Source: Bacilli bacterium
GTDB taxonomy: Bacteria > Bacillota_I > Bacilli_A > RF39 > UBA660
NCBI GenBank assembly: GCA_017404385.1
Contig: JAFRCK010000031.1
Location: 13,799-77,798 of the forward strand
Direction: 5' to 3'
Length of the DNA: 64,000 nucleotides
Both the position numbers and the translations under genes were made by a program. This document shows positions 19,318 through 36,145 of the stretch, in pieces. Each line of letters opens with the position of its first letter. Within the stretch, counting starts at the first letter, position 1. A model generated the notes under the pieces. It saw nothing but the letters and a program-made list of their open reading frames with translations, did not search any database and was not told where the DNA came from.

Positions 19318-21597
19318 ATGGCAAACATGGAAAATTTTTTAAATTCTATTGAGATACCTAATGGTGTTGGTTTTGAAATATATCCTAATACAATTCCATT
19401 TTTGTTTAAGACTAAAGCATTATTTCAGAGTTTTGGCTTAGAAGCGGAAAAAATATTTCAAAAAGTATTAATAAAATATGACTTACCAGTATTTTTTCCA
19501 CTTGAATTTTCATTGTCAGTTGAGTCATGTAATGGTGAAAAACATATTTGTCTTTCTAAATTATTTTTTATAGATACAATATGTAAATGTTTTAATAGGC
19601 AACTTCCAGAAGAACTAAATGATTTCTTTTCTATGGTATCTTCTGGTTATTCTAATCACGCTTTTATGAGAAACGAATTTTTATCAAGTAATCTAAAGAA
19701 TATTACTAAGGGTATTATAAAGGAATTAAATGAAACAAAAACAGTAGAAGATTTTAGAAATGTGAGTAATTATTTATATCAAGTAGTCATTGCTTTAGCT
19801 AAAAAACGAAATATAGGCAATTTAGAATTTCAAAAATTCTTTTTACATTTCCGTGATGATTTAATAAAACAATTGAAAAAAATAATCATATGGTCTGATA
19901 AAATATTAGATGATATTTCCATTCCTTTAGAAAATGAATTATTTAGATATGTAGATATTGATAAATTTAAAATGTATTTCTCGTTTTTATATTTACATAA
20001 TTCTCAATTTGTTAAATCTCCATATAATTTAATATTATATGATTCTGCGTTAAAAATTGTTGATTCTATTGAGAATAAGGATGTTAAAATTCAGAGCATA
20101 TATATTTTTTCTTTTTTTAAAAGTCCTGATAAATCTCTCATAATTGATAATGCTAATATTATAAAATTTAATGAACTATTAAATTATTATAAAAATAGAA
20201 GTAATATAGGCCCTACAAATCTATTAGAGAATTATTCTAGAGGTGATTTTTCTGGAAAAACAATTGATGAGATTCTTGATTTTATTTCAAAAGAGATAGA
20301 AAAAACTATCGAAAAATCTACTGAATTAGGTAGTGAAAATGTAGATGCTAATGAAATGAATTCTAAAATAGATGAACTAGATAGAGAAATTAAATCTGGA
20401 AAACTAGTAGGTAAAGATTTATTAAAAGCAAAACATCAGTTACAAAAATTACATATGGTTATGAAAGAAGTTATGCCAAGAGCTATTCATAAAGGTTTAC
20501 CACCATTTAAAGGATTTTATGTTTATTTTTATGATAATGGTATGGTTGCGATAGATAAAATAGATTATGGATCACGTTTATTTGTTATGCCTGTTTCTAC
20601 TTATAAGTATATTTTAGATAATAAAATTGACAGGTTAAGAAAAGTAGGTAGATTAGATAGTGTTAAAGCTTATAAACATGATGAAAGAACAGATTGGTTA
20701 GGAAAAGCAAAACAAACTATTTTAAATAGTACTGAGTATGTTACTGAAGCTGATAAAAAATATAATGAACAAATAGATGGATGGAATTTTGGATACACTC
20801 AAGAAGATATTGATAAAATAAAGAATACTATTGAATTAATAGAAAAAGATGTTTCTTTAACTATTGATGAAAAAGATAAGATTAAAAAAGAAATTGAAGA
20901 AAAAGCAAAAAAGAAGAGAAAGAAGAAACAAAAAGCTAATGAAATAGATAGTGAATTAAAACAATCTAATCCAAAGTCAGAAGAAGAAATGACTAAAAAG
21001 GATAATGATGAATTAGCCATTTTAGAAAGTAGATTAGATGATGAATTTGGTAATGATTCTGATTTTGATGAATTATATGAAGCAGAAAAAAAGTATAAGA
21101 AAAATGGAAATAGATGCGCTTCTGTATCTAAATTTGGTAAAGATAGAACTATAGATGAAAATGGTATGTATCACTGTGAAATGTGTAATAATACATATTC
21201 AATAGAACAAAAATCTAGATTAGACTATCATCATTTTATACCAATCTCAAAAGGTGGCCCTGATACTCTATATAATGGAATATGTTTATGTACTGAATGC
21301 CATAGAATAATCCATTATGAGAAAGAAAGAATTCCAATTAGTACTCAAGGTTATATTTTATCTTTAATAGAAAAACATATTAGAGAAGAAAACCCTGAAC
21401 TATTAGATAAATTTATTGAATATAAAAATTATTTCTTTCCAGATATTAATGAATTAATATCTAATGAAAGAAATAGATTAAAAAAACAAGGATTATCTGA
21501 ATCTATGATAGATATTATTATAGAAGAAAAAAAAGAATTATTATTAAATGAATCTAAAAAATATGTAAAGGGATTTGAATTAAGATATCATAAATAA
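19318..21597 (+). CDS. Large protein with an uncharacterised ~600-aa N-terminal region, a K/E-rich coiled-coil, and a C-terminal HNH endonuclease domain
   Basis: C-terminal CEMCNN...DYHHFIPISKGGPDTLYNGICLCTECHRIIH (HNH with CxxC Zn ligands). RBS GGAGG. Confidence 0.6.
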   Translation: MANMENFLNSIEIPNGVGFEIYPNTIPFLFKTKALFQSFGLEAEKIFQKVLIKYDLPVFFPLEFSLSVESCNGEKHICLSKLFFIDTICKCFNRQLPEELNDFFSMVSSGYSNHAFMRNEFLSSNLKNITKGIIKELNETKTVEDFRNVSNYLYQVVIALAKKRNIGNLEFQKFFLHFRDDLIKQLKKIIIWSDKILDDISIPLENELFRYVDIDKFKMYFSFLYLHNSQFVKSPYNLILYDSALKIVDSIENKDVKIQSIYIFSFFKSPDKSLIIDNANIIKFNELLNYYKNRSNIGPTNLLENYSRGDFSGKTIDEILDFISKEIEKTIEKSTELGSENVDANEMNSKIDELDREIKSGKLVGKDLLKAKHQLQKLHMVMKEVMPRAIHKGLPPFKGFYVYFYDNGMVAIDKIDYGSRLFVMPVSTYKYILDNKIDRLRKVGRLDSVKAYKHDERTDWLGKAKQTILNSTEYVTEADKKYNEQIDGWNFGYTQEDIDKIKNTIELIEKDVSLTIDEKDKIKKEIEEKAKKKRKKKQKANEIDSELKQSNPKSEEEMTKKDNDELAILESRLDDEFGNDSDFDELYEAEKKYKKNGNRCASVSKFGKDRTIDENGMYHCEMCNNTYSIEQKSRLDYHHFIPISKGGPDTLYNGICLCTECHRIIHYEKERIPISTQGYILSLIEKHIREENPELLDKFIEYKNYFFPDINELISNERNRLKKQGLSESMIDIIIEEKKELLLNESKKYVKGFELRYHK

Positions 21598-21981: not shown

Positions 21982-22764
21982 ATGATAGAAAAAGTAAATC
22001 CATCTCATCCAGATAAACAAGCTGATAGAATTGCTGGAGCTTTAGTTGATCTAGCATATTTAAAAAACAATAATCCTAAAATTGCTGTGGAAATCTTATT
22101 AGGACATGGTAAATGTCATATAATAATAGAAACTAGTGAAGAGTTTTCCACCAGTGAGGTACAATCTATAGTAAATAGAATAGTTGGTTCGGTAACACTT
22201 GATCTACAAATAGTAAAACAAGATATAGAACTTGCTAAAAATCAAGAGGGTAAGATTAGATGCGGTGATAATGGAATTTTTAAAGGAGTTCCATTAAGAG
22301 AAGTAGATATAAAATTATCAAATATTGCTAGATCAATATATAAAGAATTTCCTTATGATGGGAAATATGTATTAGATAAAGATAAATTAATTATTTGTCA
22401 AAGTCATGATAAAGAAGATGTTCTTAAGAAAGAATATCCTGATGCCATAGTTAATCCACTAGGTTATTGGACCGGTGGTATTGATTCAGATAGTGGTGCT
22501 ACCAATAGAAAATTAGGTTCTGATATGGCAGAGTCTGTTAGTGGTGGTGGAATACATGGTAAAGATTTATCTAAGTGTGATGTTTCAATAAATATATATG
22601 CTTTTTTAAAAGCACAATCTACTGGGAAAATACAAAAATATAGCTGCGCTATAGGAGATGAATACGTTGATAATATACCATATAGTGAAATTGTTAAGAT
22701 TGCAAAGGATTATATTGATAGTATAGGTGGTTTTGAGAAATTAGCAGAATGGGGATTATATTAA
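21982..22764 (+). CDS. Miniature MetK-like protein (candidate methionine adenosyltransferase-like, 260 aa)
   Basis: Three MAT hallmark motifs in the right order: SHPDKQADRIAGALVD (cf. GHPDKIADQISDAVLD), RCGDNGIFKG (cf. GAGDQGLMFG) and GGGIHGKDLSKCDVS (cf. GGGAFSGKDPSKVDRS). Protein is ~2/3 the length of canonical MetK. Confidence 0.55.
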   Translation: MIEKVNPSHPDKQADRIAGALVDLAYLKNNNPKIAVEILLGHGKCHIIIETSEEFSTSEVQSIVNRIVGSVTLDLQIVKQDIELAKNQEGKIRCGDNGIFKGVPLREVDIKLSNIARSIYKEFPYDGKYVLDKDKLIICQSHDKEDVLKKEYPDAIVNPLGYWTGGIDSDSGATNRKLGSDMAESVSGGGIHGKDLSKCDVSINIYAFLKAQSTGKIQKYSCAIGDEYVDNIPYSEIVKIAKDYIDSIGGFEKLAEWGLY

Positions 22765-22845
22765 ATACTAGTATGTAAAACAAGTAATATCAATTGCTTG
22801 TTTTTATATTGAGTTATGTTATAATTAATTTAGGAAGTGACTGGT

Positions 22846-23073
22846 ATGGGATTATTTGGAGATGATAAAAAAAAGAAGAAACAACAAGATATAGGTGCAT
22901 TATTCTTTATGAATGATGCATTAAATGATAATGAGTATGATGATGAAGAACTAGATGATTATGGTTTAACAGAAGAAGAAAAAGAATTGGTTCGTAAAGG
23001 AGAAAATGATCCTTGGAATTTTGATGAAGAAGATTTAGAAGATGATGATTTTTATGGAGAAGATGATGATTAA
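22846..23073 (+). CDS. Small, extremely acidic (D/E-rich) protein
   Basis: DDEELDDYGLTEEE...DEEDLEDDDFYGEDDD. The island's left junction lies 10 nt after its stop codon. Confidence 0.4.
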   Translation: MGLFGDDKKKKKQQDIGALFFMNDALNDNEYDDEELDDYGLTEEEKELVRKGENDPWNFDEEDLEDDDFYGEDDD

Positions 23074-23333
23074 TCATCTTTTTTAATTGCTCTCTTCCCC
23101 CCCTGACACCTCTTTAGACCTTATTTTATAATGCTTTTCAACTATTTTAGACACCATTTAGATTCCAGCAATTTCTTCAGTTCAGAGAGAGCGTTCACAC
23201 CAGTTCATAATTGACTCTATATAGGATTAAGAATACATTATTATATTAAATTGAAATATCAAAATCATTATAATCTTTTCATGGTATAATATTTATTAGA
23301 GATTATTTAATTTATAAGGATAGTGGTAGTAAT

Positions 23334-24581
23334 ATGTCTAACTATTTTAAAAACATTTCAGATAAAGATGCTTATGATATTTTAAGAAATAAATTCTTTT
23401 TCAATTATAAATATAAGCTAAAAAGCAAAATAACGATTTCTGAGCAATTTAAATTAGTTGCTAGAAATATAAATAATGATGAAATTGAAATATTAGGAAA
23501 GTCAATGATAGAAAAAATAAATGATATATTTATGTTTATAAATAGTAAGGAAGATTTTTACGATAACAATAAAAAAAATAAAGCTTTTCAATCATATTTG
23601 AAAAGAGCTACTGAATTTGATATTAAAACACCAATAATATTTGATCTAGATGGTAATGAATTATATGATATTTATAAAAAAATATTTGATATAATTTCTG
23701 ATAATTACGATTTTATTGATTTAGACAATAAATATAATAGTGCAATGAAAATAACGAATAAATACCTTTCTAGTTTAATTGTTATTTATTCTGAAGATAT
23801 AAATAGTATATATGATTTTATTAAGAATAATAGCGATATTTCAGAAGAATTAATTGAAGATCATTATGATGATTTTATATATAAATATATAGATTTTTGG
23901 AATTCTATTAATTTTAAACAATATAATTATTTAGGAATAAAACTCTGCAAATTTAAAACAAAGTTGAAATCATATTTGTTTATTTCTGACTTAAGTAAAA
24001 GTAATTTTTGTAATGAATGTCTGGGGGTTTTTAAAAATCCTATAGATATTCAGGTTTATGATAATAAATTGTTATATTTGATTGTTAGTAGGTTTAATCC
24101 TATGGGGTATATGGATGACAATAATAGAATAGTATTATATTGGTCATTATTAGAAATGCTATTAACACACAAGCCAAATGATAATTATATAGATGATACT
24201 ATTCAGAAACAATTAACTAGGAATATAACAGATTGCTTTCAAAAATATGGTGTTAATAAAATAAGCAAAAAAGAAATACGATTATTGTATGATTATAGAT
24301 CTGTGATTTCACATGGTGAATTTCTTGAGATTGATAAAATACTAAATAAAATAAAAAAATTAAATTTTATAAATGAATTAAAAGATGCATTAGCAATTGA
24401 AGATGATTTGAAAAAAGGAGATATAGTAGATATTATAAGAATACGTTTACTATATATTTATTCAACAATAATGAAATCATATTTTAATGATTATAAATAT
24501 ATTGTCAATTTAAAAGAATATAGAATTAAGAAAAAAATAATCGTTGATATTATTAAAAATATATTTATAAAGCATGAATGA
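23334..24581 (+). CDS. Hypothetical protein with a possible HEPN-like Rx4H motif (candidate Abi-type protein)
   Basis: YDYRSVISHGEF (R-x4-H). First gene inside the island. Own promoter (TGGTATAAT). Confidence 0.35.
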   Translation: MSNYFKNISDKDAYDILRNKFFFNYKYKLKSKITISEQFKLVARNINNDEIEILGKSMIEKINDIFMFINSKEDFYDNNKKNKAFQSYLKRATEFDIKTPIIFDLDGNELYDIYKKIFDIISDNYDFIDLDNKYNSAMKITNKYLSSLIVIYSEDINSIYDFIKNNSDISEELIEDHYDDFIYKYIDFWNSINFKQYNYLGIKLCKFKTKLKSYLFISDLSKSNFCNECLGVFKNPIDIQVYDNKLLYLIVSRFNPMGYMDDNNRIVLYWSLLEMLLTHKPNDNYIDDTIQKQLTRNITDCFQKYGVNKISKKEIRLLYDYRSVISHGEFLEIDKILNKIKKLNFINELKDALAIEDDLKKGDIVDIIRIRLLYIYSTIMKSYFNDYKYIVNLKEYRIKKKIIVDIIKNIFIKHE

Positions 24582-24648
24582 TATATTAATGTATTAGAAT
24601 TATCAAAAAATGATTTTTTTGTTATAATGCTTACAGAGGTGATTATTA

Positions 24649-25434
24649 GTGGATAATAAACTTTTAAATGATTTTATTTCATATTTTGAAAAAGACAAAT
24701 ATAAATTTGAAAATTTTTGTAAGATTTTTTTAACATGGCTTGGTTTTGATGATGTTATTGTTACTCAAAAGAGTGGAGATAAGGGAATTGATTTAAGATG
24801 CACTAAAAAAGAAATTGATAAATTAGATACTACAGAAATAGAATATATTGTTCAAGCAAAATGCTATAAACACGGAAATAATGTTTCTGGACCAGAAATA
24901 AGAAATTTTAAAGGGACAAGAGAAACATTAGGAAAAAGAAGATTATTTATTACAACAAGTGATTATACAAGTTCAGCAAAAGAAGAAGCATCTGATCCAA
25001 ATCAACCTGTTACTCTTATAAATGGAGAAAAGATTATTGATTATTGTAAGTCTTTGGGTGACCAAGTATTTGATATTCATTTTTCTTGCAATAAACAAAA
25101 ATTAGATGACTTGTTTGTGGAAAGTGCTAATGACAATACAGTTGATAATAAAATAGATGAAGTTATTAAAAGAATTACTAAGAATGATGTTAGAGCTAGA
25201 ATATTAAGAATTCCTAGTGAGTATAAGAATGACCTTAAGGGAAAGAAAAAATATAAATTGATAATTAATGGTAATTTAAAGGAATATTTTAATATTAGCT
25301 CTGATGAAAGATATTTTGGTGGCATTACAAAATATTATAAAACTTTTATACAAGATAAAGATTTTGTGGATGCACAATCATTATGGAAGTTCGATAAACA
25401 AAATGAAATAATTTATGTTGAAATAAAAATGTAG
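24649..25434 (+). CDS. Restriction-endonuclease-fold protein with N-terminal Mrr-cat-like PD-(D/E)xK domain plus a ~130-aa C-terminal domain (GTG start)
   Basis: GDKGIDL...EYIVQAKCYK core. RBS AGAGGTGA before the GTG start. Strong terminator at 25438..25480. Confidence 0.6.
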   Translation: MDNKLLNDFISYFEKDKYKFENFCKIFLTWLGFDDVIVTQKSGDKGIDLRCTKKEIDKLDTTEIEYIVQAKCYKHGNNVSGPEIRNFKGTRETLGKRRLFITTSDYTSSAKEEASDPNQPVTLINGEKIIDYCKSLGDQVFDIHFSCNKQKLDDLFVESANDNTVDNKIDEVIKRITKNDVRARILRIPSEYKNDLKGKKKYKLIINGNLKEYFNISSDERYFGGITKYYKTFIQDKDFVDAQSLWKFDKQNEIIYVEIKM

Positions 25435-25437
25435 TAA

Positions 25438-25480
25438 TAAACATATTTATTATACATTGTGTATGTAAATATGTTTTTTT
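25438..25480 (+). terminator. Terminator after the Mrr-cat gene
   Basis: AAACATATTTA ... TAAATATGTTT followed by TTTTTT. Confidence 0.7.
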
Positions 25481-25519
25481 ATGTTATAATATTATTTAGA
25501 AATGGTAGGTGGTAATAAT

Positions 25520-26398
25520 ATGAAAAGAAAACAGAATTTAGTCCTTCAACCTGTATTGAAATGGGCTGGTGGTAAAAGACAATTATTACCACAATTAGAA
25601 AAATTTTTCCCTAAAAAAAATATAACTTCATATTATGAACCTTTTATAGGTGGAGGAGCTGTGTTATTCCATTTACAACCTAAAAAAGCTGTAATTAATG
25701 ATTATAATGAAGATTTAATTAATCTTTATAGATGCATAAAAGATAATTTAGAAGAATTAATAGAAAAATTAAAATATTATGAAACAAAGAATAATTCTGA
25801 AAGTTTTTATGAAATTAGAGGAATTGATAGAACTGAAGAATATAAAAAATGGTCACCTGTTGAAAAAGCAGCAAGATTAATATATTTAAACAGAACTTGC
25901 TACAACGGATTATTTAGAATGAACAGTGCAGGTCAATTCAATTCACCTTATGGCTCTTATAAGAATCCTTGTATATGCAATGAACCAGTTCTTAGAGCTA
26001 TGAGTAAATATTTTAATGAAAATGATATTGAATTCAAAGCTGGTGATTTTGAGGATGCGTGTAAGGATGCTCCTAAAGGTTCATTTATCTATTTGGACCC
26101 ACCATATGATCAATATGATGAACAACTAAACTTTGTTGGATATACTAAAGATGGTTTTACTCGAGAAGATCAAACTAGATTAAAGAAAATGTGCGATAGA
26201 TTAATTGAAAAAGGTTGTTATGTTATGATTAGTAATTCAAAAACACCTTTTATAGTTGATTTATATAGTGACTCATCTAAGTATGTTACATATACAATTA
26301 ATACTGTTAATGCCAGAAGAAATATTAACAGTAATGCAAAGAAAAGGGGAGAAGTTGAGGAGGTTTTGATCATTGGAAAATTGGATATCGAAAAATAA
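25520..26398 (+). CDS. Dam-family N6-adenine DNA methyltransferase
   Basis: N-terminal LKWAGGKRQLLPQL. Catalytic YLDPPYDQY (DPPY motif). RBS AGGTGG. Confidence 0.9.
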   Translation: MKRKQNLVLQPVLKWAGGKRQLLPQLEKFFPKKNITSYYEPFIGGGAVLFHLQPKKAVINDYNEDLINLYRCIKDNLEELIEKLKYYETKNNSESFYEIRGIDRTEEYKKWSPVEKAARLIYLNRTCYNGLFRMNSAGQFNSPYGSYKNPCICNEPVLRAMSKYFNENDIEFKAGDFEDACKDAPKGSFIYLDPPYDQYDEQLNFVGYTKDGFTREDQTRLKKMCDRLIEKGCYVMISNSKTPFIVDLYSDSSKYVTYTINTVNARRNINSNAKKRGEVEEVLIIGKLDIEK

Positions 26399-27668
26399 TG
26401 AAGCATGGAATTTATTGTTTGATAAATACAATATTGTAAATGAGATTAATAAAAATGGATATTTTGAAATAGCAGCTGATGAGATTAAAACTTCAGGTAG
26501 AGAACCTCGTCTAATGACTAAATTTGATAGTAGTGAAAATTTGCCAGATATTTTTAAAAGTAATCAATTGGCCATATTACCTATAAAACGTGGATCATAT
26601 ATTATTGGCAAATTTCAAAATTATCAATTAGTAGATATTAATAATGATATAGATGTAGAAACAAAGTATTTACCAGATTATATAACTACTATTGATTATA
26701 ATAATATAACAAGTGAAGCAATTTCTTTAAATGCTGCTTATATATCTGGTATGCTTGAAGATATAATAGGTGAACCTGTGGTTCCTACTATTTCTGGTAG
26801 AATGGGAACTGGTGAATTTAAATATCAAATATTATTAAACGATCAAAATTCATTTGATATAAATGTTGAAAATTCGCAAATGGAAATTGACGGAAGTTAT
26901 GAAGGTATTTCTAAATTTGTTATATTAGAAGCCAAAAATCATTATATGAAAGATTTTATAATCAGACAATTATATTATCCATATAAGGTATGGAAATTAA
27001 ATACTAATAAGGAAATAATACCAATTATGTTAATTAAACATGACAACATATTTAATTTCTTTGTATATAGTTTTGAAAATGAAAATGATTATAATAGCAT
27101 CAAACTAAAAGAAATTAAACGATATATATTAGATGAACCTTATAATCCTATTGAAGTTTCAGATATTATGAATGTAATGGAAAATATTGAATTTGCTACA
27201 GAATCTAGTGATGTTCCATTTCCACAAGCTAATACATTCAATATAGTATTAGACTTGTTAGGACAATTAAATGGTCAAGATATGACACCGGATGATATAA
27301 CAAATTTCTTAGAATATGATCCAAGACAAACTAATTATTATATCGATGCTGCAAAGTATTTAGGATTTGTAACAAAAGAAAAAAAGTATACATTAACTGA
27401 ATATGGTAGACGTATAATGAAGATGAATCATAAAGATAGAACATTAGAAATTGTTAAGAGTATTTTATCTCATAAACCATTTTATTTAGCAATGAAACAA
27501 CAATTGGATGATTTTGATTTTAATATAGAAGAAATTGCTAAATCTATAGATGAATGTAGAAATGAAATTAATAAAGAGAGTACAGCTAAGAGAAGAACAA
27601 GTACTGTTACAGCTTGGGTAAAATGGATTTTAGATATTACAAATTATATTGATAAAATTTATTTATAA
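26373..27668 (+). CDS. Putative restriction endonuclease partnered with the Dam-like MTase (PD-ExK motif); TTG start overlapping the MTase stop
   Basis: Strong RBS GAGGAGG 9 nt before TTG 26373, overlapping the last 26 nt of the MTase. Motif EIDGSYEGISKFVILEAKNH (D...E-A-K). Confidence 0.5.
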   Translation: MENWISKNNEAWNLLFDKYNIVNEINKNGYFEIAADEIKTSGREPRLMTKFDSSENLPDIFKSNQLAILPIKRGSYIIGKFQNYQLVDINNDIDVETKYLPDYITTIDYNNITSEAISLNAAYISGMLEDIIGEPVVPTISGRMGTGEFKYQILLNDQNSFDINVENSQMEIDGSYEGISKFVILEAKNHYMKDFIIRQLYYPYKVWKLNTNKEIIPIMLIKHDNIFNFFVYSFENENDYNSIKLKEIKRYILDEPYNPIEVSDIMNVMENIEFATESSDVPFPQANTFNIVLDLLGQLNGQDMTPDDITNFLEYDPRQTNYYIDAAKYLGFVTKEKKYTLTEYGRRIMKMNHKDRTLEIVKSILSHKPFYLAMKQQLDDFDFNIEEIAKSIDECRNEINKESTAKRRTSTVTAWVKWILDITNYIDKIYL

Positions 27669-27721
27669 ATTAAACTAAAAAATTAGACATTTATAAAATT
27701 GTTAAAGAAAGGAATGATAAT

Positions 27722-28720
27722 ATGAAAGGAATTTATAAAGAATTAAAAATTGAAAATATAGAATTAGATATGTCTAACCCGAGAATAGCTAAATATATTG
27801 AAATGTATGATAAAGAAAGTTTATCAAGTGAAGCACTTGCATTGGCATTAGGAAGTGGAGTTGAAGATTCTGGGCAAACAAATTATAATAGCTTATTTAA
27901 TTCTATAAGAACAAATAAAGGAATTATTCATCCTATTTTGGTTAACCATCAAGAAGATGGTAAATATGTTGTAATTGAGGGTAATACAAGATTAAAAATA
28001 TACCAAGAATTTAAAGAAAATAATGTTGATGGAGATTGGGATACAATACCATCAATTGTATATGAAAAATTAAGTTCAGATGAAATACATGCAATTAGAT
28101 TACAATCCCATTTAGTTGGTCCTAGAGAATGGGATCCATATTCTAAGGCAAAATATTTATATAATCTTTGTTATATTGAAAATTTACCAATGAACCAAAT
28201 AATAGATTTTTGCGGTGGTAAAACTAATGAAATTATGAAATATATTCATGCGTATCAAGATATGGAAAAATATTATAGGCCAAAGCTTGAAGCTGAAGAT
28301 GAATTTGACCAAAGAGAGTTTTCTAAGTTTTTGGAATTTCAAAATACTACTGTCAAAGAAGCAGTTTTATCACAGTTTACAATGGAAGATTATTCGCAAT
28401 GGGTAATTGATGGAATTGTTGATACAGCAATAAATGTTCGTAAGTTGCCCCAAATACTAAAAGAACAAAAGGCAACAAAAAAATTATTAAAAAGTAATAT
28501 CAAAGAAGCATATGAGGAAACAATTACTAATAAACCTGGATATAGAGATTTAAATACTGTTTCGTTAGAACAATTATGTATAGAATTAACAAATAGAATT
28601 TATAATATGCAATTAAAAGATTATAAAGAAATAAAAGACGGAAACAGTGAGTTAGGAGCATCTATAACAAATCTTAAATCAACTTTAGATTGGTTTGTTG
28701 AGGATATAAATAAGGACTAA
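27722..28720 (+). CDS. ParB/Srx-superfamily (ParB-like nuclease domain) protein, paralog 1
   Basis: N-terminal NPR box (LDMSNPRIA). HPILVNHQEDGKYVVIEGNTRLKIY (ParB-like catalytic/NTP-binding segment). Homologous to the 30601 gene (LVGPREWDPYSKAKYLYNL vs IIGRKDWEPYEQAGYLYRTL). Confidence 0.6.
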   Translation: MKGIYKELKIENIELDMSNPRIAKYIEMYDKESLSSEALALALGSGVEDSGQTNYNSLFNSIRTNKGIIHPILVNHQEDGKYVVIEGNTRLKIYQEFKENNVDGDWDTIPSIVYEKLSSDEIHAIRLQSHLVGPREWDPYSKAKYLYNLCYIENLPMNQIIDFCGGKTNEIMKYIHAYQDMEKYYRPKLEAEDEFDQREFSKFLEFQNTTVKEAVLSQFTMEDYSQWVIDGIVDTAINVRKLPQILKEQKATKKLLKSNIKEAYEETITNKPGYRDLNTVSLEQLCIELTNRIYNMQLKDYKEIKDGNSELGASITNLKSTLDWFVEDINKD

Positions 28721-29151
28721 TGGAATCAGATAAGCATCACTCACTTGTAAAAAAAATATATAATTATGTAAGAAAATTATATTTTGTTGAAGATGGACTC
28801 ATAGAATCAGATATATATGAAATTCATGGAAATGTAACAAGAATGCCAGAAGGTTTTATACCGGATTTATTTTATATGCATAATAATTTATTAATAATAG
28901 GCGAGGCAAAAACAAATGATGATATAGAAAAAGAACATAGTTTTCGCCAATATAATTCATATTTTAAGTATATTAGTAATAAATCAAAAAAAGGTATAAA
29001 TTGTATTTTTATTATAGCTGTTCCGTGGGAATGCACAAAAACTGCTTTAAGAATTTTTAAAAAATATTCAGAAAATATTAGGGTAAAATTAGTAATTATA
29101 AATGAATTGGGAGTTTATAAAGAATATGAAAAAAATTGTATTGGAAAATGA
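28720..29151 (+). CDS. Small PD-(D/E)xK-fold nuclease-like protein
   Basis: IPDLFYMHNNLLIIGEAKT (D...E-A-K). Start overlaps the upstream stop (TAATGG). Confidence 0.45.
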   Translation: MESDKHHSLVKKIYNYVRKLYFVEDGLIESDIYEIHGNVTRMPEGFIPDLFYMHNNLLIIGEAKTNDDIEKEHSFRQYNSYFKYISNKSKKGINCIFIIAVPWECTKTALRIFKKYSENIRVKLVIINELGVYKEYEKNCIGK

Positions 29152-30601
29152 ACCAAAATATGAAGCCAAATTAAAGTCTTTTATTTACCAATCTCAAGCG
29201 GTAGATTTTGTAAAAGATCTTGAATATGCTGCTATCTTTCATGAACAAGGTTTAGGAAAAACAAAAATAGCATTAGACATTGCTTTATATTGGATATCAA
29301 AAAGAGAGATTGATACAGTATTGATAGTCACAAAAAAAGGGTTAATAAAGAATTGGGAGGATGAAACAAAAATACATTCATTTTTACATCCAAAAGTATT
29401 AAATAATAATAAATCTAGTAATTATTATGTTTTTAATAGTGCAACTAGATTAATAATAACTAATTTTGAAACTATTTCTATCGAAAAAAATAGATTTAAA
29501 CTATTTCTTAAATCAAGAAACGTTGGTGTAATAATTGATGAATCAGCAAAAATAAAAAATCCAAATTCTCAATTAACAAAAGATTTTTTCGAATTATCGC
29601 CTTTATTTGTCAGAAAAGTAATAATGACTGGAACACCAGTAGCAAATAGACCTTATGATATTTGGGCACAAATATTTTTTTTAGATAATGGAAAAAGTCT
29701 GGGAGAAAATTATAAAGAATTTAAATCTAAATCTGACTTATCAAATAAACTTTCGTCTGATCTTAATAAAAAAAATGATTTTGAAAACTTTATTTCTAGT
29801 ATTTTTGATAAAATAAGTGATTTTTCAATTCGTGAAACAAAAAAAAGTGCAAACTTATACCTCCCAGATAAAATTTATCATGACATATGGACTATGTTCA
29901 CTCCAGAGCAAAAGAATATGTATGATAAATTGAGAGAAGAATTGAGAATTGAATTAATTCGTGATGACAAAAAGGAAGAAGATGATGTATCTTCTGTTTT
30001 AAAAAGAATCCTAAGGCTGGAACAGATAACATCAAATCCAAAAATGTTAGATGAAACAATTAATTTTAAGTCTGGTAAAGAAATTGAGTTAAAATCACTT
30101 GTAAAAGATATAGTCAATAGAGGTGAAAAAGTAATAATATGGACAAATTATATATATAATATAAATTATATTAAAGAAATGTTTTTGAAATATAATGCAG
30201 TAACAATAAGTGGAAATATGACTATTGAACAAAGAAATGAATCAGTTAAAAGCTTTAAAACTGGTGATTCTATGGTTTTAATAGCAACACCACAGTCAGC
30301 AAAAGAAGGATTGACTTTAACTGTAGCAAATAATGCGATTTTTTATGATAGAGGATTTAGCTTAGATGATTATCTTCAGGCACAAGATAGAATACATCGA
30401 ATTTCACAAACAAAAGAGTGCAATATATATAATATTATGATAAGGGGAAGTATTGATGAATGGATCCATAAATTATTATTAGTTAAGGAGAAAGCTGCAT
30501 CATTAGTACAAAATGATGTATCAAAAGATGAGTATGTCAATTTAGTGGATTATTCTTATGACAAAATTATAAAAAGAATACTTGATGTGGAGGAAAAATA
30601 A
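29102..30601 (+). CDS. SNF2-family helicase (minimal core; the start may instead be ATG 29126)
   Basis: Motif I EQGLGKTKIALDIALYW, motif II DESAKIKNP, motif VI QAQDRIHRISQTKECNIYNIM. Overlaps the upstream gene. Confidence 0.85.
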   Translation: MNWEFIKNMKKIVLENEPKYEAKLKSFIYQSQAVDFVKDLEYAAIFHEQGLGKTKIALDIALYWISKREIDTVLIVTKKGLIKNWEDETKIHSFLHPKVLNNNKSSNYYVFNSATRLIITNFETISIEKNRFKLFLKSRNVGVIIDESAKIKNPNSQLTKDFFELSPLFVRKVIMTGTPVANRPYDIWAQIFFLDNGKSLGENYKEFKSKSDLSNKLSSDLNKKNDFENFISSIFDKISDFSIRETKKSANLYLPDKIYHDIWTMFTPEQKNMYDKLREELRIELIRDDKKEEDDVSSVLKRILRLEQITSNPKMLDETINFKSGKEIELKSLVKDIVNRGEKVIIWTNYIYNINYIKEMFLKYNAVTISGNMTIEQRNESVKSFKTGDSMVLIATPQSAKEGLTLTVANNAIFYDRGFSLDDYLQAQDRIHRISQTKECNIYNIMIRGSIDEWIHKLLLVKEKAASLVQNDVSKDEYVNLVDYSYDKIIKRILDVEEK

Positions 30602-31608
30602 TGAGCAAGTTAATTAACGATATTTTAATAATTGGTAATGTGGATTACGAAATTAAAAGAACTGAACTTAAACAAAAAGATTTAAAGTTTTTTCCTGAAA
30701 ATCCAAGGGTATTTAGTGTTTTAAATATGACAGATGAAGAGCCTACGCAGGAACAAATAGAAGAAATAATGTGTAAAACAGAACATGTGAAAAAATTAAA
30801 AGAATCAATTAAATCTAATGGAGGTTTAATTGATCCTATATTTGTAAGAGATGGAGATATGGTTGTTTTAGAAGGAAATAGTAGGTTAGCGGCATATAGA
30901 ATTTTACATAAGCAAAATCCTATTAGATGGTCTAAGCTTAAGGCAATATTGTTACCAAAGGATATTCCTGATTCAGCAGTTTTTTCTCTGTTAGGACAAT
31001 TTCATATTATAGGAAGAAAAGATTGGGAACCATATGAACAGGCAGGTTATTTATATAGGACATTATGTGATACTAATAAGACTATTGAAATATTGGCAGC
31101 AGAATTAGGTATTACAAAATCTTCTATAAAAAAATTAATTGACGTCTATGAATACATGCTTGAAAATGGTGATAATCATCCAAGCAAATGGAGTTATTAC
31201 GAAGAATTATTAAAGAATCGTGGTATTAAGAAAGCGTTTGAAGAAGTACCAGGATTAGAAGATAAAATTATAGATGACATTAAAAACAATAAAATTCGTA
31301 TGGCAATTGACATAAGAAAATTAGGAGATATTAGTAAAGTTAATGATAATCTTTCTAGAAGAATATTAAATGACATTGCGAACGGGGAAAGAGATATTTA
31401 TAGTGGATATGAAGTGGTTGAGGATACTGGAAAAATGGATAATAATTATCAATATATTAAAAATTTTAAAGAAAAAATTCTAAATTCATCTTCAACAGGA
31501 AAATTGTTGAAAGATAAAAATATTAATGATATAGAATTTGAATTGAAAAAAATACAAAAAATAATTGAAAATATTTTATTGAATATAGAAAAAGATAAAA
31601 AACAATAA
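30601..31608 (+). CDS. ParB/Srx-superfamily (ParB-like nuclease domain) protein, paralog 2
   Basis: FPENPRVFSV (NPR box). IDPIFVRDGDMVVLEGNSRLAAYRIL. Start overlaps the SNF2 stop (TAATG). Confidence 0.6.
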   Translation: MSKLINDILIIGNVDYEIKRTELKQKDLKFFPENPRVFSVLNMTDEEPTQEQIEEIMCKTEHVKKLKESIKSNGGLIDPIFVRDGDMVVLEGNSRLAAYRILHKQNPIRWSKLKAILLPKDIPDSAVFSLLGQFHIIGRKDWEPYEQAGYLYRTLCDTNKTIEILAAELGITKSSIKKLIDVYEYMLENGDNHPSKWSYYEELLKNRGIKKAFEEVPGLEDKIIDDIKNNKIRMAIDIRKLGDISKVNDNLSRRILNDIANGERDIYSGYEVVEDTGKMDNNYQYIKNFKEKILNSSSTGKLLKDKNINDIEFELKKIQKIIENILLNIEKDKKQ

Positions 31609-31619
31609 TGGAGTTTAAA

Positions 31620-32000
31620 ATGAAAAAAAGAGTCTTTATATTTATAATAATGGTATTACCTTTACTATGCTTGATTGTACTTGACTTTATAAATATAACA
31701 AAATATTTTCCGTTTACTAAAAGTTATGACTGGCTTTCTTTTTTTGGGGCATATATATCTGGTCTATGTACCTTGATTTTAGGAATTGTATCTATAAAGC
31801 AAAATAATACTCTATCTAATTTAAATAAAAAAATGTTGAATAATGATGTTGTTTCATCTAGTTTTTCAAAAATTGATGTAGAAAATGAACATTTCTATGA
31901 AAAGGTACCATTGCTTCCATTGGATAAAGCGTATGGAATTATTATGAAGGAAAATTGGAATAATAAAAATGATACTAATTATCATAGATTTATTATATAA
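31620..32000 (+). CDS. Small 2-TM membrane protein
   Basis: Hydrophobic helices. RBS AATGGAG. Distal part of the island operon. Confidence 0.4.
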   Translation: MKKRVFIFIIMVLPLLCLIVLDFINITKYFPFTKSYDWLSFFGAYISGLCTLILGIVSIKQNNTLSNLNKKMLNNDVVSSSFSKIDVENEHFYEKVPLLPLDKAYGIIMKENWNNKNDTNYHRFII

Positions 32001-32048
32001 TTAAAGGATGAAAATAATTTACCATTAAAAAATGCAATTATAAAAGAA

Positions 32049-32399
32049 ATGAAATTACATTATAATTCTGATAAGAGATATGGTGGTGATATTAAAACTT
32101 TTACTTCGGATAGTAAACCAGTTAAATTGGAGGTAACTACGCATGAAGATAAAATTACTTATTATTTACCTATATGTATTGTAGGAGATAATGAATTGTT
32201 AAATAATATATACAGTGGTAAAAATATTACTATTGAGGCAATATTTTATATAAAAAATGTTTTTAATGTTGTATCTGAAGGAGATTATACAATTCACTTT
32301 AACAAAAGAAATCAAAAAAGTGAGAATTGGATTCATTATGATTTATATGGCAGAAAAATTTATTTTAAAAACATTTATTATGATGATGAAAATAATTAA
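32049..32399 (+). CDS. Hypothetical protein (116 aa), last island gene
   Basis: ORF followed by a strong terminator at 32413..32451. Confidence 0.35.
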   Translation: MKLHYNSDKRYGGDIKTFTSDSKPVKLEVTTHEDKITYYLPICIVGDNELLNNIYSGKNITIEAIFYIKNVFNVVSEGDYTIHFNKRNQKSENWIHYDLYGRKIYFKNIYYDDENN

Positions 32400-32412
32400 T
32401 TATATTTGGTTT

Positions 32413-32451
32413 AAAAAAAACATATATAGATAAAACTATATATGCTTTTTT
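32413..32451 (+). terminator. Rho-independent terminator closing the island operon
   Basis: CATATATAG-ATAAAA-CTATATATG followed by CTTTTTT. Confidence 0.75.
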
Positions 32452-32682
32452 AGTGAAAAAATCATATCCTATTTTAGATTCCATTTACATCCCATTTTAG
32501 ATGTTTTTGTGGCATCTAAAATTTTAATTAAAAATGAACTACAGTGTACAAACCCTTATTTTATATGGAAAAATGTGAAATGGTGTGTACGAATCAATGA
32601 CTAAAATATTCGGCCCCCTGAAGAGAGCAATTATAGTATTATATTAATTGTATTTTTGTTATAATAAACATGGGTGATTTTT

Positions 32683-33069
32683 ATGTTAATTGTAGTCGCA
32701 GCTTTAATAGAGAAAGATAATAAAGTTTTAGTAGCGAGACGTTCTACTGGTGACGAGAGTGTATTTGGTAAGTGGGAATTTCCTGGTGGAAAGGTTAATG
32801 AGAATGAAGATGAAAAGGATGCAATTGAAAGAGAAATAAATGAAGAATTTGAGTTAAATATAAAAGCAAAAGAATATGTAGTCAATAATGTTTGTAAGTA
32901 TCCTACTAAAACTGTTGATTTAAGATTGTATAGATGCGATTATATATCTGGTGAATTTCATTTGCATGATCACTTTGAATATGTATGGGTAGAAAAGAGT
33001 AAATTATTAGATTATGATTTAGCTCCTGCTGATATCCCACTAGCTAAATATGTTATGGGAAAAAAATAA
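32683..33069 (+). CDS. NUDIX hydrolase (MutT-like)
   Basis: Nudix box GGKVNENEDEKDAIEREINEEFEL. RBS GGGTGA. Extended -10 TGTTATAAT. Confidence 0.85.
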   Translation: MLIVVAALIEKDNKVLVARRSTGDESVFGKWEFPGGKVNENEDEKDAIEREINEEFELNIKAKEYVVNNVCKYPTKTVDLRLYRCDYISGEFHLHDHFEYVWVEKSKLLDYDLAPADIPLAKYVMGKK

Positions 33070-35002: not shown

Positions 35003-36145
35003 ATGTTAGAAAGAACAATGTTTAAAAGAGATGAAAAAAGAAATATATATATTGATAGAGAAGTATTAATTGAAAAGAAAGAAGACTTGGCTGATTTTGT
35101 TACTAATGAACCATTATTAAATAAATCAAAATTTAGTAAATCAGATTTTCCACAGGAAATTAAATTTAATAACGCAATTGAAGGAATAGATGATGACGTT
35201 AATGAGATAAGTTCATTATTAAGTAGAATGTTTGTTAGTGTTAATAGAGATAAAAAAAGAATTACTAATGTTTATAAAGCTTATAAATATATATTAAATC
35301 ACAAGAATATAAATAAAGATTCATTAAAGAAACTATATTCTATTTTAAGTGATGGATTACTACAATCATGTGATTCTAGAAGAATGGGGGAATACTACAG
35401 AAACGGTGATGTCTATATAATGAGAGGCATAAGTATGGAAAGATTCTTCCGTGGAGTAGAACCAGAACATGTTTCTGAATACATGGATATATTATTTGAT
35501 TATATTAATAATGATAATAGTGATAAGACTGATATAGATTCATTTATTAAGTCTCAAATAATACATGCTTATTGTGTATATATTCATCCTTATTTTGATG
35601 TTAATGGTAGAACATCTAGAACTTTAGGTATGTGGTATTTATTAAATAAAAAAGATCTAAATTATATTACATTTAATAGATCTATATCATTTTTAAAAAG
35701 TAAATATGAAAAAAGTCTTATTGAATTGAGAGATATGGGAGATATGACTCCATTTTTAAAATATATGTTAGATGCTGAAAGATTGGAATTAGAAAAAGAA
35801 TATATTATTAATAATGTTGAAAAGAATATTGGTAAAAAATTAACTAATGAAGAATATCTTACTTTAGAATACTTCTTAAGTTTAAATGGTAGATTAACAT
35901 TACTTGATTTAATACATATATATAATGATTATAATGCTAAGAAAAAAAAGTTAGATGTATTAGAAGAAAAGATAAATCCATTATTAGAAAAAGGTATATT
36001 AAAAAAGACTTTTGATACTAAACATTATATATCATCTGATTTACCTAATTCTAGAATAGTATTAAATAGAGAATTATTAGATGTAGATGAAAAGAAAATT
36101 AAAAAACTAAGACTTGAACATTATACAAAAGAAAACCAAGATTAA
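35003..36145 (+). CDS. Fic-family protein
   Basis: Fic motif IHPYFDVNGRTSRTL (HPFx[DE]GNGRxxR). RBS AGGGGATGA. Confidence 0.8.
   Translation: MLERTMFKRDEKRNIYIDREVLIEKKEDLADFVTNEPLLNKSKFSKSDFPQEIKFNNAIEGIDDDVNEISSLLSRMFVSVNRDKKRITNVYKAYKYILNHKNINKDSLKKLYSILSDGLLQSCDSRRMGEYYRNGDVYIMRGISMERFFRGVEPEHVSEYMDILFDYINNDNSDKTDIDSFIKSQIIHAYCVYIHPYFDVNGRTSRTLGMWYLLNKKDLNYITFNRSISFLKSKYEKSLIELRDMGDMTPFLKYMLDAERLELEKEYIINNVEKNIGKKLTNEEYLTLEYFLSLNGRLTLLDLIHIYNDYNAKKKKLDVLEEKINPLLEKGILKKTFDTKHYISSDLPNSRIVLNRELLDVDEKKIKKLRLEHYTKENQD

Follow-up and report, generated by a model that had tools for sequence, protein, structure and literature searches.

A conserved four-gene cassette of two ParB-fold proteins, a PD-(D/E)xK nuclease and an SNF2 motor, proposed to act as a modification-coupled restriction module

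Within the window (the whole stretch of 64,000 nucleotides analysed here) a Dam-type methylase and a restriction endonuclease are followed by four tightly packed genes at 27722–31608, encoding two ParB-like proteins, a small nuclease and an SNF2 protein. The question is what such a cassette does and whether it belongs with the enzymes upstream of it. The four proteins are a self-contained effector, and comparative genomics suggests a role in defence. With a little more confidence than doubt, we propose from sequence comparisons that the cassette would be a modification-coupled restriction module, with m6A at GATC as the self mark in the lineage of the window.

Gene order and proteins

Four open reading frames with TAATG junctions had been predicted, and checking confirmed them: ParB-A (27722–28720), the nuclease (28720–29151), the SNF2 protein (29102–30601) and ParB-B (30601–31608), all on the forward strand like the other genes of this locus described below. 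A check of gene neighbourhoods in the 86 related loci fetched as a comparison set revealed one order for the four genes in essentially every locus, with overlapping start and stop codons, and the active-site motifs of all four proteins are near-invariant across these relatives. Scans for promoter and terminator consensus sequences gave counts close to those of shuffled sequence in this DNA of 25% GC.

ParB-A and ParB-B have the same domain plan, an N-terminal ParB/Srx-fold nucleotide-binding domain, an HTH and a helical C-terminal region, and their supposed paralogy is borne out by an identity of 28% (E = 1e-18). The N-terminal fold together with box I (NPR) and box II (GxxR) places them in the ParB/Srx superfamily at the level of fold. 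ParB-B matches the NCBIfam parB_part domain at 1.7e-7, and a PDB sequence search with ParB-A gave only marginal ParB/Noc matches (E 0.07). Among 71 ParB-B sequences the residues N34-P-R36, E91-G-N93, R95, G132, H135, W142 and E146 are 100% conserved.

The nuclease is a minimal, stand-alone protein of 143 aa without a DNA-recognition domain of its own. When modelled it gives a restriction-endonuclease fold, in line with the original prediction of a PD-(D/E)xK protein, and shows both the alpha-beta-beta-beta-alpha-beta core and the D...(D/E)xK catalytic triad of this superfamily. Its best structural match is the nicking enzyme N.BspD6I, but sequence identity to the heterodimeric R.BspD6I / N.BspD6I is only 8–12%, and BspD6I lacks the ATPase and ParB partners found here. 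The nuclease has no family in NCBIfam or Pfam and is rare overall, with 674 representatives among 1.84 billion. A 432-aa protein (P0190) was considered as a possible nuclease fusion; its N-terminus proved unrelated and it has no bearing on contact between ParB and nuclease.

The SNF2 protein is a minimal SNF2/Rad54-type dsDNA translocase of 499 aa that consists of the ATPase core only. Its N-lobe and helicase C-lobe are seen in the matches to Pfam SNF2-rel_dom (2.5e-26; 92.9 bits, cutoff 24.9) and Helicase_C (1.6e-17; 64.2 bits), and the PDB entry closest to it is 1z63, the SNF2/Rad54 core from Sulfolobus (2.9e-35). At least 90% conservation was found for 160 of the 499 positions in 78 sequences; motifs I, II and VI of the SNF2 family are present, the conserved motifs being GLGKT (50–54), DES (146–148) and QAQDRIHRISQ (426–436, QxxR).

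Directly downstream, at 31608–32399, lie two small ORFs, one of 130 aa that has two hydrophobic segments and one of 116 aa, which are probably co-transcribed with the cassette. They had been suggested as effectors of the system, a role we reject because tblastn against the 86 related loci gave no match, even in the locus (L007) whose ParB-A is 86% identical, and because their 90%-identity clusters have only 2 and 1 members. Scans of PADLOC, NCBIfam and Pfam gave no family match for either, and they are lineage-specific singletons outside the conserved system.

Partner enzymes and a proposed mechanism

The methylase (25502–26398, alternative start 25520) is a DpnM/Dam-type D12 N6-adenine DNA methyltransferase, matching Pfam MethyltransfD12 (7e-67) and NCBIfam TIGR00571 dam (285.6 bits, cutoff 114.85). 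Its top PDB match is DpnM (2dpm, 4.6e-79), with E. coli Dam next, and it fits the ordinary MTase_II models of PADLOC (1e-95) far better than PD-Lambda-5_B (6e-21). The endonuclease (26373–27668), of the DUF6996/DUF6997/DUF7226 family, matches PADLOC REase_II PDLC03513 (2.3e-82) and Pfam DUF6997 (1e-58); a PDB sequence search gave no match. The region 25502–27668 thus combines a Dam/DpnM-class methylase with an endonuclease, as in Type II GATC restriction-modification, the methylase being probably GATC-specific by homology and the endonuclease its classical partner. The endonuclease does not accompany the cassette consistently: homologues precede the cassette in L010 and L011 and follow it in L007, while other relatives have a DpnII-family endonuclease instead or none that is recognisable (Saccharibacteria).

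The main clue to function, absent from the original prediction, is the partner found in most lineages. A gene for a B12-type radical SAM enzyme lies at most two genes from the cassette in 64 of the 86 loci, and in 13 loci and the window it is replaced by a D12 methylase; both occur together in L039 only. Neither was found in nine loci, seven of which are cut by contig ends, so that L054 and L063 alone have full flanks and no recognisable partner. Counting loci with usable flanks, the partner adjoins the cassette in 77 of 79, usually no more than one gene away and in the same orientation. According to a neighbour-joining tree of the SNF2 protein, the methylase-linked cassettes form a single clade nested among the radical-SAM-linked ones, which rules out two separate switches from radical SAM enzyme to methylase in Bacilli/Clostridia and in Saccharibacteria.

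The position of the methylase beside the cassette had been pointed out before, and the link proves to be real and to go beyond adjacency. All members of the Dam-linked clade have a D12 methylase next to the cassette, and in L001, L007, L008, L009 and L012–L014 the cassette separates the M gene from the R gene. Inside the clade methylase and cassette are not congruent; ParB-A of L007 is 86% identical to that of the window and its Dam 44%, while in L010 the values are 67% and 84%. The constant element of this clade is the methylase and not the endonuclease.

The radical SAM family is large and unnamed, with at least 5,800 sequence clusters. Its profile gave only marginal MiaB/RimO matches in the PDB, and the nearest recognisable relatives (E 0.06 to 2e-4) have tRNA, proteins or small molecules as substrates. 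In many loci a DGQHR protein and a GHKL ATPase are found alongside it, and some partners bear effector-like domains, for example SIR2 fused to GHKL, which fit the logic of abortive infection as well as that of restriction. The same radical SAM family (~50% identity) adjoins PbeABCD-type cassettes in six of seven sampled contexts (PbeA 1e-217, PbeC 3e-96), in the place where other loci have cytosine methylases or the Dnd genes for phosphorothioation (PMC10853773). Since it occupies the position of the Pbe modification genes, the radical SAM enzyme behaves as an exchangeable modification module, and it is a candidate DNA-modifying enzyme that may serve at least two unrelated effector cassettes.

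The cassette is almost always situated beside a DNA-modifying enzyme and for this reason probably represents a new type of restriction module. The partner would mark the DNA of the host and the cassette would attack DNA without the mark. The usual partner would be the B12-type radical SAM enzyme, with or without the DGQHR protein and the GHKL ATPase, exchanged in the clade of the window for the DpnM/Dam-type GATC m6A methylase, which is proposed as the modification partner in this lineage. In a first step the two ParB paralogues may assemble into a nucleotide-gated complex that binds or clamps DNA and reads its modification status; where DNA is unmodified they would then bring in the SNF2 motor or license it for translocation and, as a third step, also license the nuclease to cut, the latter having no DNA-recognition domain of its own. 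Anti-phage function, modification dependence, complex formation, nucleotide specificity and this order of events are what we infer from the comparisons. The scarcity of GATC in the window (observed/expected = 0.64) and neighbourhoods that resemble defence islands were counted in favour of modification-coupled restriction, and against it that the nucleotide specificity of the ParB fold is not predictable from sequence (PMC12704722) and that a scan for a parS-like palindrome found none. A bolder version, possible but held with clear doubt, is that the module represents a new restriction class, in which a heterodimeric nucleotide-gated ParB clamp would read the mark and license an SNF2 motor and a bare nuclease, the radical SAM enzyme would install a mark of a chemistry new to restriction-modification, and the window would show that mark swapped for GATC m6A.

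The adjacency could also reflect hitch-hiking in defence islands, because the window and its closest relatives hold a complete classical restriction-modification pair. The cassette would then be an autonomous defence that needs no mark and senses, for example, phage replication intermediates or DNA ends, the methylases, radical SAM enzymes and endonucleases being mere island neighbours or co-travellers. The Dam and endonuclease pairs of the window, L010 and L011 could work alone, L054 and L063 have cassettes without a recognisable partner, and the remaining flanking genes are of heterogeneous defence types. The neighbourhoods look like defence islands, with genes for an Mrr-family nuclease, HNH, NACHT, an SLFN-like helicase, a SIR2-GHKL fusion and Fic as well as a PLD-helicase, HipA-like and WYL proteins, and a PADLOC scan of 135 flanking proteins gave 211 families, none recurring in more than three proteins. 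(Fic proteins and methylases in the flanks have an HTH_17 domain in common.) We nevertheless regard autonomous defence as rather unlikely: nearly every cassette with usable flanks has a partner beside it, the cassette is inserted between M and R genes in several loci, chance clustering would not make radical SAM enzyme and methylase almost mutually exclusive, and the methylase is kept across a deep clade despite swaps of both methylase and endonuclease.

Less probable still is a helper role, in which the cassette would aid DNA modification or the upkeep of epigenetic marks and not restrict DNA: its ParB-like NTPases and motor, with the nuclease as a nickase, would open the duplex to the modifying enzyme. 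The analogy is with the ParB-superfamily proteins DpdB and DndB, which serve the modification side of Dpd and Dnd, DpdB by giving DpdA access and DndB by regulating Dnd (PMC10164549; PMC10853773). It would also suit the nicking enzyme as top structural match of the nuclease, and the DGQHR protein and GHKL ATPase added in many radical SAM loci. Dam and DpnM need no helpers, yet the Dam-linked clade retains all four genes with intact catalytic motifs; the radical SAM enzyme moreover pairs with PbeABCD, an effector-type cassette holding a nuclease-helicase, and none of the seven sampled contexts was a radical-SAM-only operon lacking both cassettes.

Distribution and significance

The cassette was found in more than 12 phyla, with hosts among Bacillota, Bacteroidota, Saccharibacteria, Planctomycetota, Chloroflexota, Pseudomonadota, Spirochaetota, Thermotogota, Myxococcota and further phyla, and in settings that include gut and rumen Bacillota and Bacteroidota, Saccharibacteria and rhizobial megaplasmids. 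Judged by gene order and host range it is one conserved, widespread unit of four genes. Most copies lie on long chromosomal contigs amid housekeeping or defence genes and some have transposases or recombinases alongside; the patchy spread over phyla points to a horizontally mobile family whose distribution was shaped by transfer.

Such a patchy distribution, with transposases beside some copies, is not what a DNA repair or chromosome-maintenance complex unrelated to immunity would lead one to expect. SNF2 remodelling combined with a structure-specific nuclease loaded by ParB-like clamps would describe the same proteins, but the rarity of the nuclease, the obligate adjacency to modification-type enzymes and the setting among defence genes make this explanation very unlikely.

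The least probable explanation, under which a phage, plasmid or integrative element would use the cassette for its partition, replication or maintenance, was named beforehand as the outcome that would speak against defence. It might draw on the two ParB-fold proteins with HTH domains, the similarity of the SNF2 protein to phage helicases (phrog_62, 2e-94) and the few copies on rhizobial megaplasmids, by recombinases or transposases, or on viral-classed contigs, but is largely refuted by near-absence from phages and plasmids: protein-level searches with ParB-A gave no match in 50,697 phage records, seven in 72,556 plasmids, each of the seven a large alphaproteobacterial megaplasmid, and three true matches in 2.9 million IMG/VR contigs. 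Nor does the location on mostly long chromosomal contigs agree with ParABS, which is expected on plasmids, phages or at the chromosomal origin; no ParA gene or replication initiator was found beside the cassette in the window and the listed contexts, and an inverted-repeat scan of 23000–33000 for a parS-like palindrome gave only AT-rich imperfect palindromes at chance level.

If modification-coupled restriction is the true function, a widespread multi-gene immunity module missed by current defence-finding libraries would be added, and the ParB-CTPase fold, for which roles beyond chromosome segregation are still an open question (PMC12704722), would gain a role in self/non-self discrimination. 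The radical SAM family would then bring DNA modification of a new chemistry, possibly of use as a tool. Work on the system would be easiest to begin with the Dam-linked version found in the window, as its predicted GATC m6A mark can be switched in standard E. coli dam+/dam- hosts.

Comparison with known systems

In agreement with the original prediction, no named system covers the four-gene unit: matches in PADLOC 2.0 are partial or weak only, no family for the cassette was found in PADLOC, NCBIfam or Pfam, and a search of the full-text literature found no paper describing this gene set. The resemblance to DISARM suggested earlier is generic, as DISARM, a restriction-like system of several genes, likewise has a methylase and an SNF2 helicase (DrmD). 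Its core proteins DrmA (helicase), DrmB (DUF1998), DrmC (PLD) and DrmE have no match among the 10 proteins in 23334–32399, and DrmD shares only the core with the SNF2 protein (PADLOC 1e-11; NCBIfam 19.3 bits, cutoff 610). For Zorya type I, ZorD models match the SNF2 part alone (profile positions 443–899 of 908; NCBIfam 57.8 bits, cutoff 1500), and neither ZorC nor the membrane-motor proteins ZorA and ZorB gave matches.

The 7-deazaguanine system Dpd resembles the cassette loci in combining a ParB-superfamily protein (DpdB, DGQHR type), an SNF2-like protein (DpdE) and an unusual DNA modification, and a DpdB-like DGQHR protein occurs in some of these loci (1e-19). The SNF2 protein of the window matches the DpdE models of PADLOC (9e-34) but reaches only 13.5 bits (cutoff 500) in NCBIfam. 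Dpd differs in its TGT-like transglycosylase DpdA, DpdC and the DpdD-K set, lacking here; models of DpdA, DpdB and DpdC gave no match in the window proteins scanned, the two ParB-like proteins included.

PD-Lambda-5 contains, like the window, a D12-type methylase-like protein together with one whose N-terminus is ParB-like, but PD-Lambda-5_A (~460 aa) matches over only ~85 N-terminal residues (1e-4 to 2e-5; 2e-5 to 0.09 over the A models), short of that two-gene system. The 715-aa PDC-M38A of PADLOC is a partial and weak match, its ParB-like N-terminal region of ~180 residues matching the two paralogues at 1e-10 and 1e-11. Neither PD-Lambda-5 nor PDC-M38 has the arrangement of nuclease, SNF2 protein and second ParB. 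GmrSD, SspE and BrxU (DUF262), which gave no sequence match to the window proteins, are single-chain HNH (DUF1524) fusions without an SNF2 motor and mostly attack modified DNA; the point of comparison is that in these enzymes a nucleotide-binding domain of ParB/Srx fold controls a nuclease and senses DNA modification (PMC12839542).

PbeABCD (CxC-ABC-DndE) consists of PbeA, in which an HKD nuclease is fused to an SF2 helicase, the small protein PbeB, the CxC ABC ATPase PbeC and the DndE-like PbeD, none of them homologous to the two ParB-fold proteins, the separate PD-(D/E)xK nuclease and the SNF2 core of the cassette. Pbe models gave no match to the window proteins, Pbe genes being found only in other loci with the radical SAM partner. 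Both are nevertheless multi-gene effectors that include a helicase and a nuclease and share an operon with an exchangeable DNA-modification module, and both are flanked by one radical SAM family in common.

Architecture and spread of the four-gene cassette

All open reading frames named in the original prediction are present in the window (GC ~25%) at the positions it gave, and the genes are recorded as proteins MBQ3475610-15 (locus tags IJH20_055xx, uncultured rumen/gut Bacilli bacterium MAG). The cassette, entirely on the forward strand, consists of ParB-A (27722-28720), a 143-aa PD-(D/E)xK nuclease (28720-29151), a 499-aa SNF2 protein (29102-30601) and ParB-B (30601-31608). The predicted TAATG stop/start overlaps were seen for ParB-A/nuclease and SNF2/ParB-B and also between ParB-B and the following 130-aa ORF. 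The nuclease and SNF2 ORFs share 50 nt, an overlap that is identical in the related locus L001, and the overlapping start and stop codons in the cassette are consistent with translational coupling.

ParB-A retrieved 2,311 proteins in a homology search, and in essentially all of the 86 related loci examined the four genes keep a constant order and orientation where the contig permits, which bears out the proposal that they form one conserved unit. The hosts include Bacilli, Clostridia, Saccharibacteria, Bacteroidota, Planctomycetota, Dehalococcoidia, Anaerolineae, Alpha-, Beta- and Deltaproteobacteria, Spirochaetota, Fibrobacterota, Thermotogota, Atribacterota and Myxococcota, and the cassette is found also on Rhizobial and Roseomonas megaplasmids. 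At two loci (L051:11446-12288 and L073:11436-11663) the SNF2 match ends mid-gene with no ParB-B detected beyond it; the copies may be broken or in decay, or the assembly may be interrupted there.

Conservation within the cassette is high and is concentrated at the expected active sites. Both ParB paralogues have a ParB fold, nucleotide-pocket motifs and HTH domains, the invariant residues among related sequences being D16, NPR, EGNTR and an RLQxHxxGxRxWD block in ParB-A, and NPR, EGNxR, H135 and W142 in ParB-B; which nucleotide ParB domains bind is not predictable from sequence (PMC12704722). The motif LxGxxxW[DE]PY proposed as common to the two was identified in both, but its first residue is I in ParB-B. 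The nuclease is a core alone with E2, D49, E62 and K64 invariant, and belongs to a small family (674 representatives at 50% identity among 1.84 billion proteins) of which nearly all members are ~135 aa. The 499-aa protein is a bare SNF2 ATPase/translocase core with no further domain, the nearest solved structure being a 500-residue Sulfolobus SNF2/Rad54 core (2.9e-35), and 160 of its 499 positions, motifs I, II and VI included, show at least 90% conservation; motif II contains the expected DES but reads DESA rather than DESH.

Upstream of the cassette lie a 261-aa protein with an Mrr catalytic domain (24649-25434; PADLOC PDC-S02 and type IV REase models), a D12 methylase (25502-26398) and a type II endonuclease of the DUF6996/6997/7226 family (26373-27668), and the Mrr protein and methylase are preceded by a 415-aa protein without family match (23334-24581). 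Further genes lie just upstream of this island: one for a 759-aa protein that carries an HNH domain at its C-terminus (19318-21597), one for a short protein of 260 aa whose sole match is to the N-terminal domain of S-adenosylmethionine synthetase (21982-22764), and a highly acidic, D/E-rich 78-aa ORF (22837-23073) that could be a DNA mimic or regulator. The 130-aa and 116-aa ORFs downstream (31608-32399) had been proposed as members or effectors of the system; like the Mrr and 415-aa proteins they lack counterparts in all related loci examined, and since they are also singletons in the protein collection they are placed outside it.

Radical SAM and methylase partners

Clustering of the flanking genes revealed a protein that carries an RGCxxxCxxC motif, is about 370-690 aa long and is encoded at most two genes from the cassette in 64 of the 86 loci. 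Because of weak Pfam matches to B12-binding (4e-9) and Radical_SAM (2e-6) it is assigned as a divergent B12-type radical SAM enzyme. Its nearest recognisable relatives, with marginal E-values, are tRNA, protein or small-molecule enzymes, no family in PADLOC or NCBIfam covers it, and its profile retrieved at least 5,836 sequence clusters, every one annotated hypothetical. When genomic contexts of its homologues were sampled (n = 7), one adjoined the ParB cassette and in the other six (L093-L098, e.g. L094:8001-14586) the gene heads a Pbe-type operon, followed by a DEAD helicase (~705 aa), a ~57 aa protein, an SMC_N/AAA_23 ATPase (~650 aa) and a DndE-like protein (~148 aa), with PADLOC calls for PbeA (1e-217) and PbeC (3e-96). 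No Dnd genes were found near these six operons, and no description of the pairing was found in the literature searched. The literature treats PbeABCD (CxC-ABC/DndE system) as an effector cassette linked either to Dnd phosphorothioation genes or to cytosine methylases, and this modification partner is the proposed basis of self/non-self discrimination (PMC10853773). Beside two effector cassettes that are unrelated to each other, one radical SAM family thereby fills the slot that otherwise goes to DNA-modifying enzymes.

In the window the radical SAM gene has no homologue; here, as in L001-L003, L007-L014, L018 and L024, a D12 methylase replaces it. Both partners occur together in L039 only and neither in nine loci, seven of them truncated by contig ends. 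At one of the other two, L054:8458-15474 (Parasphingorhabdus), no modification partner is recognisable and Mutator-family transposases lie on both sides, resembling a composite transposon. In a neighbour-joining tree of SNF2 the methylase-linked cassettes form a single clade nested within the radical-SAM-linked ones, which indicates that the replacement occurred once and was then kept across Bacilli, Clostridia and Saccharibacteria.

Inside this clade the histories of methylase and cassette differ, identity to the window being 86% for ParB-A and 44% for Dam in L007 and 67% and 84%, respectively, in L010. A DpnII-family endonuclease accompanies the cassette in L001, L008, L009 and L012-L014; L007, L010 and L011 carry one from the same family as that of the window. 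The gene order is two methylases, cassette and endonuclease in L001, L008, L009 and L012; methylase, cassette and endonuclease in L007, L013 and L014 (no second methylase gene was detected in the latter two); and methylase, endonuclease and cassette in the window, L010 and L011. In the Saccharibacteria loci an HTH-fused methylase gene converges on ParB-B and no endonuclease was recognisable among the flanking genes, of which several encode proteins matching no family, so one may be present yet undetected. An HTH domain is common to flanking Fic proteins and methylases. Since methylase lineage, endonuclease and gene order all vary, a putative GATC-type methylase beside the cassette is the sole constant of the clade.

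The window methylase passes the Dam cutoff of NCBIfam and is likely specific for GATC, as its nearest solved relatives are DpnM (4.6e-79) and then E. coli Dam; GATC is depleted in the window (observed/expected 0.64). Among palindromic tetranucleotides of the whole 64 kb, CATG is depleted equally (0.60), which may point to a further restriction pressure acting on this lineage, e.g. of NlaIII-type specificity.

Recurrent additions to the cassette loci are a DGQHR (DndB/DpdB-like) protein and an HSP90-like GHKL ATPase, and Bacteroidota-type loci add a ~225-aa protein of unknown family; a Rhizobium copy is annotated in RefSeq as ParB, hypothetical, helicase, ParB, DGQHR, radical SAM and ATP-binding. 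In some radical-SAM-linked loci (L015:15722-18448 and L099:8823-11549) the GHKL ATPase is fused to SIR2_2 (908 aa; PADLOC PDC-S25, 6e-62; ThsA-like, 4e-22), suggesting a NAD-depleting effector layered onto the system. The ~225-aa protein follows ParB-B, and its Prevotellaceae version (L081:13879-16935; also L031, L076, L078 and L082) is fused to a sigma-70 region 2/4 segment resembling PADLOC MzaA (6e-31).

Proposed modification-coupled restriction and competing readings

The neighbours of the cassette vary and are often of defence type. The window has Mrr and HNH proteins; L001 and L002 have a NACHT/SMEK protein along with UDG, a HipA-like kinase, WYL and Fic; L004 and L005 have HNH, a PLD-helicase, MazG and a Schlafen-like helicase; and L015 and L099 have the SIR2-GHKL fusion. 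Fic/DOC-family proteins were observed near the cassette in unrelated lineages (window 35003-36145, L001:19456-20379, L015:8889-9902, L038:9071-9973, L099:2002-3003), immediately upstream of ParB-A in the last three.

The cassette is probably a defence-type system of one kind or another. Given the slot of the radical SAM enzyme beside Pbe and its replacement by a DNA methylase, we infer that this enzyme modifies DNA and that the four genes are the restriction side, a specific model that is held with rather less assurance and only mildly favoured. The ParB paralogues would assemble into a nucleotide-gated clamp or DNA-binding complex telling marked from unmarked DNA and, on the latter, would bring in the SNF2 motor together with the nuclease. 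Like the small subunit of R.BspD6I, the nuclease would be unable to target DNA alone. In the window, GATC m6A made by the Dam-type methylase would shield the host from the classical endonuclease and the cassette alike.

The cassette could instead be a defence system that acts on its own, its neighbours being coincidental; the loci with neither partner would fit this, but the methylase link goes beyond mere adjacency, as the nested clade and the retention of the methylase while endonuclease and order change argue. It might also be a helper of DNA modification or a repair complex. A mobile-element maintenance module is the weakest reading, as ParB-A gave no tblastn match in 50,697 phage records, seven in 72,556 plasmids (each a large alphaproteobacterial replicon, with the cassette amid toxin-antitoxin genes, integrases or IS elements) and three true matches among 2.9 million IMG/VR contigs. 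The cassette is accompanied neither by ParA or a replication initiator nor by a parS-like palindrome; a housekeeping role in phage or plasmid replication or partition is rejected.

Relation to known systems

A ParB, nuclease, SNF2 and ParB cassette, or its radical SAM partner, was not described in the full-text literature searched, of which coverage was partial, and the family is widespread yet absent from current defence catalogues. The only link to any catalogued candidate is PDC-M38A, an uncharacterised PADLOC entry similar to the ~180 N-terminal residues common to both ParB paralogues (1e-10 and 1e-11). Membership tests place the window outside Zorya, PD-Lambda-5 and ParABS, and also outside Pbe, Dnd, Dpd and DISARM, although the logic of these four restriction-modification systems is alike to that of the cassette. 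Modification-coupled multi-gene restriction is already known as a kind; the new part is the set of components, and the family points to a possible new DNA modification.
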